Of a DNA stretch of 30,134 nt, positions 2,362 through 29,982 are shown in pieces. The first letter of the stretch is position 1; each line of letters starts with the position of its first letter. Under the pieces are notes generated by a model. That model did not search any database. It saw only the letters and a program-made list of their open reading frames with translations, and had not been told where the DNA came from. Origin of the DNA: a virus (lineage: Duplodnaviria > Caudoviricetes); the IMG/VR virus record IMGVR_UViG_3300020045_002200, positions 1 to 30,134 of that record; one strand, given 5' to 3'. The position numbers were made by a program, and so were the translations under genes.

Positions 2362-2607
2362 TTAAATTTTACGTTTACAATCTCCCAACAAAATAGCATC
2401 CATTCCCCATCCCCATTTCAATTTATCTTCACCATATTGGTCAGTATAAAAATTTCCGCTAAAATCATTAACTACTTCCCACTTTCCCCATACTTTCCCA
2501 TAACCATTAAACACTATATTTCTGTGGTAGTATTTACCTTCTAAAATAGCCAATTCATAATTAACTCCGTAAGTGTCAGAACCAAAATATAATTTTACCG
2601 TTTTCAT
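2362..2607 (-). CDS. Hypothetical protein, first gene of the leftward operon
   Basis: 81-aa ORF starting 26 nt downstream of a TATATTTG element. Confidence 0.7.
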   Translation of the reverse strand: MKTVKLYFGSDTYGVNYELAILEGKYYHRNIVFNGYGKVWGKWEVVNDFSGNFYTDQYGEDKLKWGWGMDAILLGDCKRKI

Positions 2608-2632
2608 AATTTCTTTGTTTTAAATTGTTTGA

Positions 2633-2662
2633 CAAATATACAACTAAATTTGAATAATACAA
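2633..2662 (-). promoter_or_regulatory. Bacteroidetes housekeeping-type promoter (leftward)
   Basis: The - strand reads TTG-N19-TATATTTG, matching the -33/-7 consensus TTG...TAnnTTTG. Confidence 0.75.
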
Positions 2663-2674
2663 CATTTTGTTGAT

Positions 2675-2693
2675 ATTTATAATAATTCTAAAT
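2675..2693. promoter_or_regulatory. 19-bp palindromic operator, Fur-box-like
   Basis: ATTTATAATAATTCTAAAT is a 9-1-9 inverted repeat with one mismatch, and there is a near-identical copy at 26852. It resembles the Flavobacteriia Fur box as I recall it (ATTTAGAATTATTCTAAAT). Confidence 0.6.
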
Positions 2694-2701
2694 TAGCTTA
2701 G

Positions 2702-2735
2702 TTTGTGAATTATATACTTATATGTTGTATATTTG
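2702..2735 (+). promoter_or_regulatory. Bacteroidetes housekeeping-type promoter (rightward), driving the cassette/MTase operon
   Basis: TTTG at 2702-2705 and TATATTTG at 2728-2735. Confidence 0.7.
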
Positions 2736-2751
2736 TTGAAATTAAAATATG

Positions 2752-2845
2752 GTATAATGTTTTGCAGATATGTGATGGTTGCCTAAGATGAATTAAATTA
2801 TTAACCGAGAAGTTTTTTGTAACCATTACCTATGTGCTGTTGGGC
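2752..2845. repeat. attC-like site 1 (degenerate left core)
   Basis: GTATAAT, then arm 2764-2782 (GCAGATATGTGATGGTTGC), loop, arm 2819-2837 (GTAACCATTACCTATGTGC), T, then core GTTGGGC at 2839. Confidence 0.55.
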
Positions 2846-2872
2846 GCGGTGCTTCTCATAAACTCAAATAAA

Positions 2873-3076
2873 ATGACAAACAAACAAATTAGAGAACATT
2901 TATTAACATCTGGTGTAAAGAACTTAAAAGAGTTTGGTTATCCAGAAGTAACAACCGAAACAATATTGACAGATGAAGTTTACAAGATATTTTTTAAGTC
3001 AATGTTGGAAGATAATTTAGGAAACGGGAAGCAAGTTGATGAAGTTATTGACCAGATTTTGTCTGAGGTCGAATAG
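2873..3076 (+). CDS. Hypothetical protein in cassette 1 (67 aa, MTNKQIREHL...)
   Basis: ATG at 2873 follows an A-rich leader and is preferred to GTG 2834, which lies inside the hairpin. The stop falls inside the terminal inverted repeat. Confidence 0.75.
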   Translation: MTNKQIREHLLTSGVKNLKEFGYPEVTTETILTDEVYKIFFKSMLEDNLGNGKQVDEVIDQILSEVE

Positions 3077-3082
3077 CATTGT

Positions 3083-3161
3083 GCCTAACGCTTGCGGCTA
3101 CAGTTTCGGCAGCCTATGGACAAACAAAGTTTCGGCTGCTGAAATGTAACCGCTGTTACCA
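3083..3161. repeat. attC-like site 2 (79 bp)
   Basis: GCCTAAC-GCTT-arm 3094-3114 (GCGGCTACAGTTTCGGCAGCC)-loop-arm 3134-3153 (GGCTGCTGAAATGTAACCGC)-T-GTTACCA, with one extrahelical base. Confidence 0.7.
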
Positions 3162-3206
3162 GAAGTACGGCAACTAACAATAAATAATTTAAAAACAAAT
3201 ATAAAA

Positions 3207-3527
3207 ATGGAAAATCAAATTTACAGAATCAATTTAGAAAACAGTGTTGATTTAGAAATATTCGTGATAGGCTCAAACGAACTTAATCCTTATAGACCAA
3301 TAAGAGAAATGGCAGTTCAGATTATTATAGGTGAAAAGCAATTAGATGGAGGTCTTGATTTAAATGAATTAGATTCATTGATTAAATACCTAAATGATTG
3401 CAAAGAATACATAGTTAAATACAATGAATCGAGTGTTGCTGAAAATGAGTTTTGTGAATGTGACGCAAATAGAGAATTAGACACATCGACTTATTTAGTA
3501 TGCAAAGAATGCGATAAGAAACTATGA
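3207..3527 (+). CDS. Hypothetical protein in cassette 2, with C-terminal CxC...CxxC
   Basis: 106-aa ORF bounded by GTTACCAGAAGTAC (3155-3168) and GTATTTCTGGTAAC (3540-3553). Confidence 0.75.
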   Translation: MENQIYRINLENSVDLEIFVIGSNELNPYRPIREMAVQIIIGEKQLDGGLDLNELDSLIKYLNDCKEYIVKYNESSVAENEFCECDANRELDTSTYLVCKECDKKL

Positions 3528-3585
3528 GTATTTATCGTAGTATTTCTGGTAACTATATACTAACCGCTATAAATGTATTATAATT

Positions 3586-3699
3586 ATGAAAAAAGTAATT
3601 AAAACGCTTGAAAAGAGTATCGAACTCGCAAAAGAATTGAATGTCAATAGTTATACTATTGTAAAAGATGGATTTGTAATTAATGTAAAAATAAAATAG
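3586..3699 (+). CDS. Small hypothetical protein (37 aa)
   Basis: MKKVIKTLEKSIELAKELNVNSYTIVKDGFVINVKIK, manual translation. Confidence 0.55.
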   Translation: MKKVIKTLEKSIELAKELNVNSYTIVKDGFVINVKIK

Positions 3700-3704
3700 A
3701 AATT

Positions 3705-3872
3705 ATGGAAGGTAAAGTAATATTTAGCTTAATTATAGTAGGTTTTGTAATTATATTTTTAATAGCAATTATAGTAGAATTTATATATCATTTATTAAGA
3801 GGCGAGGTAAAAATAAATAAAGAAGCTCTTAAATGGAAAAATATGGTAAAAATATGGAACGAAATAAAGTAA
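3705..3872 (+). CDS. Small membrane protein (55 aa)
   Basis: MEGKVIFSLIIVGFVIIFLIAIIVEFIY..., one transmembrane stretch; overlaps the MTase start. Confidence 0.6.
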   Translation: MEGKVIFSLIIVGFVIIFLIAIIVEFIYHLLRGEVKINKEALKWKNMVKIWNEIK

Positions 3873-4634
3873 TTAAAGGAGATTGTCTTGAAATAATGAA
3901 AAATATTACAGATGGAAGTATTGACATGATACTTTGTGATTTACCCTACAATGTGACAGGTTTAAAATGGGATAGTATTATTCCTTTTAATGAGTTGTGG
4001 TCACAATACGAAAGGATTATAAAGCCAAATGGCGCAATCGTATTAACGGCTATGCAACCATTTACCACTGAGTTAATTTATAACAATAAGAAAATGTTTA
4101 AATACTCAGTTATTTGGAATAAAGTAAAGCCTGGTAATTTCTTAACTGCAAAATTAAAACCTATGCAATCTCATGAAGATGTTTTAATATTTTCAAAAGC
4201 AAATACAGCAAATGGAAGTAAAAATAATATGGCTTACTATCCAATATTAGAGAAAAGATTGAAAACAAGGTCTTATAAAAAAGAAAAAGACAGTGATATT
4301 TATGCGAGAAAAAATACACTTTCAATAAATTACGAAACAGACTTTAAATATCCAAAATCAATTATTGAATTTAGCAATGCGAATCAAAAGAATAAATTGC
4401 ATCCAACACAAAAACCTGTTACTTTATTTGAATACCTTATAAAAACTTACACAAAAAGAGGAAGAAACGGTTTTAGATAATTGTGCGGGAAGTGGCACAA
4501 CAGGAATTGCTTGCATAAATACAAACAGAAACTATATTTTGATTGAAAATGAGCAAAAGTACTTTGATATTATAAATGAAAGAATTGACAAATATAACAA
4601 ATTACGAGCTGGAGAAGTTCTTATAGATGAATAA
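3854..4634 (+). pseudogene. Beta-class N6A/N4C DNA methyltransferase split by a single-base frameshift
   Basis: GDC, CDLPY (motif IV) and HPTQKP lie in the first frame. TVLDNCAGSGTTGIAC...YILIE (SAM-binding motif I) continues in the +1 frame after the A5 run at 4453-4457, ending at TAA 4632-4634. Confidence 0.88.
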
Positions 4635-4635
4635 G

Positions 4636-5037
4636 TCATCTATGTGACCTAAACTTTGGCAAATAAAACCATAAAAACACAAATAAACACAATATAAAAA
4701 ACAGGCTTGTATAGTCTGTTTTTTTTGTTTCTTTACTCTTTGTTATCTCAATTGTTTTAGTGATTGTTTGCCTATTATAAATCGTTTTTTTTAGTATATT
4801 ATGTTTGCTTTTATCTTTTGTAATTATAACATTTTTATATTCTTTACCGTTTAGAAACATCGATTTGTTATTATCAAACGGTTTAATAGTGAATATATCA
4901 TTTAAGATAGTTTCTTGTTTTAATATCACATCGTTATTAGTAGTTATAGTTCCTGATTCAAATGTGCTTTTATTTAGCTTAACATCACGTGTTGTTGAGC
5001 ATGAAATGAATAATAGTATAATGATTAAGTATTTCAT
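4636..5037 (-). CDS. Putative unimolecular spanin (lipoprotein with C-terminal TM)
   Basis: MKYLIIILLFIS-C lipoprotein signal and C-terminal hydrophobic SLFFILCLFVFLWFYL, directly after the endolysin. Confidence 0.7.
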   Translation of the reverse strand: MKYLIIILLFISCSTTRDVKLNKSTFESGTITTNNDVILKQETILNDIFTIKPFDNNKSMFLNGKEYKNVIITKDKSKHNILKKTIYNRQTITKTIEITKSKETKKTDYTSLFFILCLFVFLWFYLPKFRSHR

Positions 5038-29780: not shown

Positions 29781-29982
29781 TATTAACCTCACTTTCTGTT
29801 ATTTTATTAATCTCAGTACGAAGTGTTTTAGCAAATTTTATTGCGGTTGATTTATCTAAATCAATTTCAAAATATCTATCCCCATGCTTTCCATAAATTC
29901 CAATTATACCATCACAAACATCTACTCGTATATAGTCTTTTTGAACTTTACAATCTAAAAACTTTAATTCAAATTTTGCCAT
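29773..29982 (-). CDS. Hypothetical protein
   Basis: LDKSTAIKFAKTLRTEINK motif. Confidence 0.7.
   Translation of the reverse strand: MAKFELKFLDCKVQKDYIRVDVCDGIIGIYGKHGDRYFEIDLDKSTAIKFAKTLRTEINKITESEVNND

Follow-up and report, generated by a model that had tools for sequence, protein, structure and literature searches.

At positions 2755–3564, the 30,134-nt stretch of DNA analysed here (the window; a single linear virus record, about 91% complete) carries what is probably an array of two cassettes belonging to an integron-like system by which Bacteroidota phages exchange genes; the phage has no recombinase of its own. As reconstructed by comparison with related sequences, the array reads promoter, cassette 1, cassette 2, attI-like site, and its mobile unit consists of a hairpin, a leader, an ORF, and a trailer, bounded by TAAC on the coding strand. 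The enzyme that moves the cassettes appears to be borrowed from other phages or from the host.

The record includes genes for a portal protein, terminase, tape measure protein, endolysin, and exonuclease (325–939), and is probably that of a small phage of a Flavobacterium-type bacterium. Relatives of linked genes point to a Bacteroidota host, as does the TTTG-type promoter motif of the window, which we take to match the Bacteroidota consensus. The array sits at the head of the only rightward transcription unit in the window, behind a putative promoter (2702–2735, + strand; TTTG, 22 nt, TATATTTG) that is kept in near-identical phages; a divergent TAnnTTTG motif outside the array (2633–2640, − strand) faces the leftward early genes. 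A sigma-70 scan of the window found 12 sites, with 16.2 expected, and BLAST of 2600–3720 against GenBank phages gave no match. Elsewhere in the window, a phrog_21613 protein (918–1424, − strand) is encoded directly upstream of the exonuclease, a position that suggests a single-strand annealing partner, and a weak match to the SAM-II riboswitch (29818–29889, − strand; 22.9 bits against a cut-off of 44, E = 3) is probably due to chance.

A preliminary description of this DNA had picked out two single-ORF units with mutually complementary ends, each preceded by an imperfect hairpin, and every string that it quoted is present in place. On the + strand, the ends of unit 1 (2839–2853 with 3075–3089) pair at 15 of 15 positions, 11 of them Watson-Crick and four G-T; those of unit 2 (3155–3168 with 3540–3553) form 13 Watson-Crick pairs and one G-T pair out of 14. 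Both hairpins have the layout TAAY-G-N4-arm...arm-T-GTTR. Hairpin site 1 (2755–2842, +, 88 nt) is ~87% identical to the hairpins preceding homologues of the first ORF at loci L001 and L005, but its core, TAAT/GTTG where these relatives have TAAC/GTTA, is degenerate, a point previously overlooked; both changes remain G-T pairs on the coding strand. Cassette 1 may therefore be partly locked in. Hairpin site 2 (3086–3158, +, 73 nt) does have the reported extrahelical base, an unpaired G at 3103, but this is not a family feature: two relatives have an A, and few bulges recur among 134 sites. The AAC/GTT of the classical core boxes is kept, but RRRY/RYYY is not conserved, and GTTRRRY fits unit 1 but not unit 2. 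A strict detector (YAAY-G, 4–5 nt, arm, loop, arm, T-GTTR), which took the place of a loose and noisy one (871 hits), finds exactly these two sites on both strands of the 30 kb and none in 60 dinucleotide shuffles. Because it selects complementary arms, arm pairing was not used as evidence of covariation.

Cassette 1 would run from 2758 to 3088 (+) and include hairpin 1, leader, ORF1, and trailer. The crossover point, between the A and the C or T of the AAY triplet, is placed by analogy with IntI, from which the AA/C position is borrowed (PMC5027507). Leader 1 (2843–2853, +) pairs with trailer 1 (3075–3085) and would lengthen the stem in the predicted circle. The stop codon of ORF1 (2873–3076, +; 67 aa) lies within the paired trailer, 9 nt ahead of the TAAC, the commonest class among a wider set of 234 units (78); in 51 of the 234 the stop codon is on the core TAA, and in 83 the ORF starts inside the hairpin. 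Cassette 2 (3089–3552, +; hairpin 2, leader, ORF2, and trailer) is recovered whole in a foreign context. ORF2 (3207–3527, +; 106 aa) has a Cys-rich C-terminal tail that is missing from shorter homologues at L014 and L015. Neither ORF has a family match: there is nothing above cut-off in PHROGs, Pfam, or NCBIfam, and leads from the Atlas are sub-threshold only. The Cys-rich tail (3440–3527) is also found outside the cassette in contig X2-11, and behind a different ORF front within the cassette-2 frame in X4-28, which suggests mosaic ORFs.

That these are mobile, attC-type single-gene cassettes, as had been proposed, is borne out by a unit in a foreign context and by turnover among near-identical phages. 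In the first case, a 1,258-nt contig (run X1, record 2) matches window positions 3085–3553 with one difference; the sequence upstream of the match is foreign, and the contig runs on into another hairpin. Three more records, from runs X2, X3, and X4, likewise end at 3553–3554 (all four runs compared were of contigs). In the second, a scan with the gene at 918–1424 as anchor gathered eight loci at 98–99% identity. Five of them (L019, L021, L023, L024, and L025) span the array region in the same order and have the promoter and downstream genes in common with the window, but no cassette: the hairpins and ORFs are different in each. Cassette content turns over between phages that are otherwise nearly the same. 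Units in L021 and L023 are damaged; of the remaining three loci, L022 has undergone rearrangement, and L018 and L020 stop short of spanning the array. Homologues of ORF1 (85–91%, eight loci, with L002–L004 counting as one context) and of ORF2 (73–80%, three loci) occur with differing neighbours.

The position of the breaks is not as first supposed. Gain and loss had been expected at G/TT on the coding strand; instead, breaks fall at the TAAC ahead of each hairpin, so that each hairpin goes with the gene downstream, in mirror image to a classical cassette. Nine pairs have a stretch in common that ends close to the unit, and in eight of them identity ends 3–6 nt past the start of the downstream TAAC. 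The left edge is at the upstream TAAC in two pairs and within the hairpin in two; when L002 is compared with L001 and L005, it lies at the GTT end. Among 19 pairs with ORFs at least 85% identical, the upstream hairpin alone is common to seven, both hairpins to two, neither to ten, and the downstream hairpin alone to none, although these are not independent, since ten of the 19 are ORF1 pairs. Mobility and hairpin-first polarity are, on these sequence comparisons, well supported. The ten close pairs without a common hairpin, together with the L001/L002 break at the GTT end, indicate that there is a second shuffling process as well. Upstream hairpins are lacking for the ORF1 homologues at 50–63% identity (five of 13 loci), for L006, and for the ORF2 homologue in L016 (by eye), and genes of these types therefore also live outside cassettes. 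The ends of the L007 unit mispair at two of the first five positions (by eye). L002 has a short hairpin after ORF1 (3214–3265), with a more classical look: a symmetric spacer and an unpaired T on the 3′ arm (by eye).

Cassette frames are also reused. Among the 234 units, 118 pairs have the 11-nt leader in common around unrelated ORFs (permutation mean 16, maximum 35), and 19% of these pairs also have common hairpin arms, against a background of 0.6%. Identity of the trailers is partly by construction, because the 234 units were chosen for paired ends, and the exact common leader has a median length of only 14 nt. L059 has a different ORF set in the frame of cassette 2, with its hairpin, leader, and trailer. 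Short-homology swapping as the route of ORFs into frames is a guess.

The anatomy of the sites was surveyed in 134 distinct hairpins from loci L001–L140 and the window. On the coding strand these contain 238 G-T and 132 C-A oppositions, 83 of the latter at one position favouring the other strand; the coding strand folds better at 100 sites and the template strand at 33. In 65 of 81 units, which were delimited by neighbouring sites and not through pairing, the five bases that follow GTTR are fully Watson-Crick complementary to the five that precede the next TAAC; the same holds for none of 79 comparisons between the flanks of a single hairpin and for 1.9% of random pairs. The paired 5-mers next to the core come in 45 different sequences among the 81 units, and compensatory changes are present in ORF1's own ends; position 7 of the end pairing is almost never Watson-Crick, being mostly G-T. 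The ORF is on the strand of its hairpin in 80 of the 81. Since a unit's own ends pair and the flanks of a hairpin do not, the long stem would exist only in an excised circle: predicted junctions are −12.9 and −26.2 kcal/mol in the circles, against −7.0 and −18.0 in the array.

At its promoter-distal end, the array is closed by a site without a hairpin, TAAC-N7-TAAC (3550–3564, +), which the preliminary description had overlooked. It is read here as attI-like and would serve as the site of insertion. It shares its geometry with the site that immediately precedes the recombinase gene in phages Freya_10 and Ingeline_1; here, however, it ends in TAAC after the N7, whereas most recombinase-linked sites end in TRTA. 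A pattern scan for the motif gave 45 viral loci, which, apart from duplicates, diverge upstream at the TAAC, where they end in cassette trailers; their conservation downstream is by construction of the scan. The motif ends 27 of the 81 units, and L134 has one extra unit where L109 has the attI-like site. Scans of genome_contigs with the hairpin-1 arm and with the attI-like motif gave no matches. The site also bears on the earlier suggestion of a Pc-like promoter: a promoter-like motif does precede the cassettes, but its position is not Pc-like, since the whole array separates it from the attI-like site.

Behind the attI-like site, an ORF of 37 aa (3586–3699, +) is kept in close relatives; its place is taken in other phages by a recombinase or by a small RelB/DUF6290-like protein (weak, sub-cut-off matches). 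The latter, of ~60 aa, is found in most of the recombinase-less phages among L098–L140, preceded by a near-palindrome, AATGTATTACAATT, which may be an operator. In the window, a second variable region (3700–4660) follows, without hairpins and with different content in every close relative, and stops at a conserved CTAA-C-TTAGGC-like junction near 4648. More copies of the attI-like motif are found in the matching region of L019. The DNA methyltransferase gene at 3833–4631 is apparently frameshifted near 4450–4480, its C-terminal part running on in another frame.

The reported absence of an integrase holds for the whole record, in which no PF00589 match was found at E ≤ 10, and supply of the recombinase in trans, as also proposed, agrees with this for a genome about 91% complete. 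Of 25 related records, one has a recombinase; among the ten that are at least 90% complete, none has a PF00589 protein of any kind. L015 has, in succession, a homologue of ORF2, an attI-like site, and a tyrosine recombinase of 267 aa. Aligned with the IntI4 structure 2a3v, recombinases of this type show the catalytic motifs, with an unaligned stretch of 36 aa compared with 84 aa. The preliminary description had looked towards IntI, but the enzyme linked to the sites in related phages scores 148 bits against a cut-off of 265 for TIGR02249 and has ~48 residues fewer at the IntI insertion. At 35 of its 63 viral loci, the ~267-aa recombinase has a same-strand site in the 1.5 kb upstream (a full 1.5 kb is present at only 35 of the 63), and at none does it have one downstream.

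The idea of a phage-specific system is not supported by comparison with bacterial genomes: the same detector finds sites of classical polarity on Bacteroidota chromosomes, behind a related recombinase. Of 80 bacterial-genome loci, seven close ones resemble the viral arrangement (L141 is surrounded by phage-like genes); in 15 that are more distant, the sites lie within 1.5 kb downstream, on the opposite strand and with classical polarity. The chromosomal-type relatives are ~40% identical to the phage-type recombinase; the ORF before the site is forward in 29 of 33 cases, and a YAAC-N7-TAT-like site lies behind the recombinase gene (by eye). A quick tree separates the two types; it has no IntI or Xer rows and leaves out loci without a detected site.

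Several recombinase-bearing phage arrays are linked to the window. The hairpin-2 family is found in L142, L234, and L249, and the ORF1 frame in L230; G001, which has an early module in common with the window, carries 14 hairpins, the short recombinase, and a separate 384-aa integrase. Its array (G001:C1, 20834–30673) ends in the short recombinase, convergent with the phage integrase, and the contig has only part of the window's genes in common. The cultured phages Freya and Ingeline have a recombinase homologue (35–37%) behind the same type of site. In Freya_10 (L304, 3790–4146) and Ingeline_1 (L305, 5930–6000), a cassette or cassette end, TAAC-N7-TAAC, and the homologous recombinase are seen. 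Freya isolates vary in length, from 43,978 to 48,920 nt. The available part of the published account (PMC8776804) annotates the recombinase of both phages just as “integrase,” taken as a sign of temperate life.

The proposed mechanism is as follows. The coding strand would fold at each site when single-stranded, and a tyrosine recombinase would cut within the AAC of the 5′ arm. Recombination of successive sites would release the cassette as a circle, with its own trailer and leader lengthening the stem by 11 bp, and such circles would insert at the attI-like site, so that the newest cassette would be the one furthest from the promoter. The enzyme might be the ~267-aa recombinase without the IntI insertion, from a prophage or co-infecting phage; this is the least certain step. 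Against it, resolution of folded sites would not be expected of an enzyme that lacks the I2 insertion (PMC4792948, PMC8138268). What is said here of enzyme, strand use, and circles we infer from the patterns above.

The donor could instead be the host: with the same cassette mechanics, a chromosomal recombinase (the longer, rAID-like relative) would be at work, and since it would see the folded strand only, it could act on the phage sites whichever way the ORF faces. It would be available in every infection, most related phages being without a recombinase, and chromosomal relatives at ~40% identity do have detector-positive sites downstream on the opposite strand, at 15 of the 80 bacterial-genome loci. 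By BLAST, however, neither window hairpin matched the chromosomal-type loci (L148–L220), whereas hairpin 2 matched phage-type arrays; the separation of the two enzymes in the quick tree also speaks against this possible but unlikely reading. With the hairpin-2 family and the ORF1 frame in phage recombinase arrays, and G001, a phage-borne donor is the better guess. It is improbable that the sites are merely relics of a lost recombinase system, turned over by homologous or microhomologous recombination at shared motifs by the phage exonuclease (325–939) and its neighbour. The exonuclease gene is 1.8 kb from the array, the core of site 1 is degenerate, cassettes are broken in L021, L023, and L006, and hairpins and ORFs have been swapped inside frames (including X4 record 28), all of which would fit. 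Single whole units are gained, however, with breaks at a motif of 4–5 nt, shorter than homologous and microhomologous recombination systems usually need, and a relic would lose both the end pairing kept in 65 of 81 units and the compensatory changes in the ORF1 ends.

An ordinary CALIN, with classical attC cassettes and a classical IntI, was the leaning of the preliminary description. Such clusters have been reported in virulent phages, including a Polaribacter phage, in the available text of PMC9892861, and the minus strand of the window does read in the classical order: attI, G/TT, cargo, AAC-hairpin. In 80 of 81 units, however, the ORF runs antisense to that order; besides the unconserved RRRY/RYYY, the arm opposite AAC lacks a conserved extrahelical base (a rule taken from PMC5027507), the linked enzyme fails the IntI profile, and P12002L_attC1, a site of the present layout, was the sole one of six not integrated by IntI1 as far as the same account of phage CALINs goes (PMC9892861). 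This makes a CALIN of the usual kind very improbable. At the RNA level, the hairpins could conceivably act as translation switches, terminators, or processing sites, and pairing of the ends could be a matter of mRNA structure, with no site-specific recombination. The better-folding coding strand is the mRNA sense, and ORFs that start within the hairpin (83 of 234 units) would suit such elements; but the TAAC breaks, the terminal non-hairpin site, and the adjacent recombinase in other phages would be left unexplained, an Rfam scan of the window gave no match at either hairpin site, and the array contains no terminator-like hit, so that as a full explanation this is extremely improbable. A role as RNA alongside recombination is possible.

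The integron-like exchange system preferred here resembles classical integrons, as portrayed in the available parts of the literature (PMC5027507, PMC4889954, PMC4792948), in its single-ORF cassettes, hairpin sites conserved in shape and free in sequence, AAC core, non-hairpin terminal site, pairing cassette ends, and one strand that folds better, with more G-T pairs. It differs from those descriptions in that the hairpin precedes the gene and recombination is predicted to act on the coding strand; the array has its promoter at one end and its attI-like site at the other, with no Pc next to attI; the outer stem extends 11 bp beyond the core with free 5-mers, in place of RYYY/RRRY; there is a 4-nt bulge rather than conserved extrahelical bases; and the phage-linked enzyme is without the IntI insertion. 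Among the classical features looked for in the window, the terminal non-hairpin attI-like site (3550–3564) was found; an IntI gene, a Pc by attI, an attC after the ORF with the non-coding strand as substrate, RYYYAAC/GTTRRRY boxes, and extrahelical bases opposite AAC were not.

A literature search that covered few subscription papers found neither the hairpin-first layout nor the phage recombinase described. The nearest published accounts are those of phage CALINs (Qi et al., 2023) and of rAID-1 (Ross et al., 2019), and the available text of neither describes this layout. Polaribacter phage P12002L likewise has integrase-less attC-like clusters, with DNA methyltransferase cargo (PMC9892861); a relaxed detector finds eight sites in it, seven of them on the strand of the surrounding genes, and it therefore probably belongs to the same class as the window array. 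In the portion of Qi et al. available, however, the sites are ordinary attC sites for IntI1, and neither hairpin-first polarity, an attI-like site, turnover, nor a dedicated phage recombinase is described. The rAID-1 arrays of Bacteroidales (Ross et al., 10.1101/471110) are the nearest bacterial description in what is accessible of that report, with a XerD-family recombinase, a variable-gene array, and integron-like intergenic repeats; the chromosomal loci found here are likened to them by arrangement only. In rAID-1, as at those loci, the genes follow the recombinase, whereas in the phages the array is upstream and the polarity inverted. Of the marks of a rAID-1 array (a XerD-like recombinase 5′ of co-directional low-GC genes, and interbacterial immunity cargo), the window has no recombinase, its phage relatives have theirs 3′ of the array, and the cargo is without a family match.

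Phage accessory-gene turnover would thereby gain a site-specific mechanism, with boundaries placed to the base for one of this phage's own cassettes. The array also bears on the origin of folded-site recombination before the I2 domain and on the making of cassettes, both called open in the available part of Escudero et al. (PMC4792948); the occurrence of the same frames around unrelated ORFs bears on the latter. It is quite conceivable, if somewhat short of probable, that Bacteroidota phages draw on a common pool of mirror-image cassettes, which a tyrosine recombinase carried by phages moves by acting on folded single strands although it lacks the IntI insertion, that small phages keep the landing site and use the enzyme of others, and that new cassettes are unrelated genes fitted into a reusable frame of hairpin, leader, and complementary trailer, the last often supplying the stop codon. 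Because Freya and Ingeline are in culture, with a recombinase homologue behind the same type of site, the system is testable now. If there is such a common pool, and a phage recombinase without the insertion, they would together be a living example of an I2-less integron-like system and of cassette genesis.
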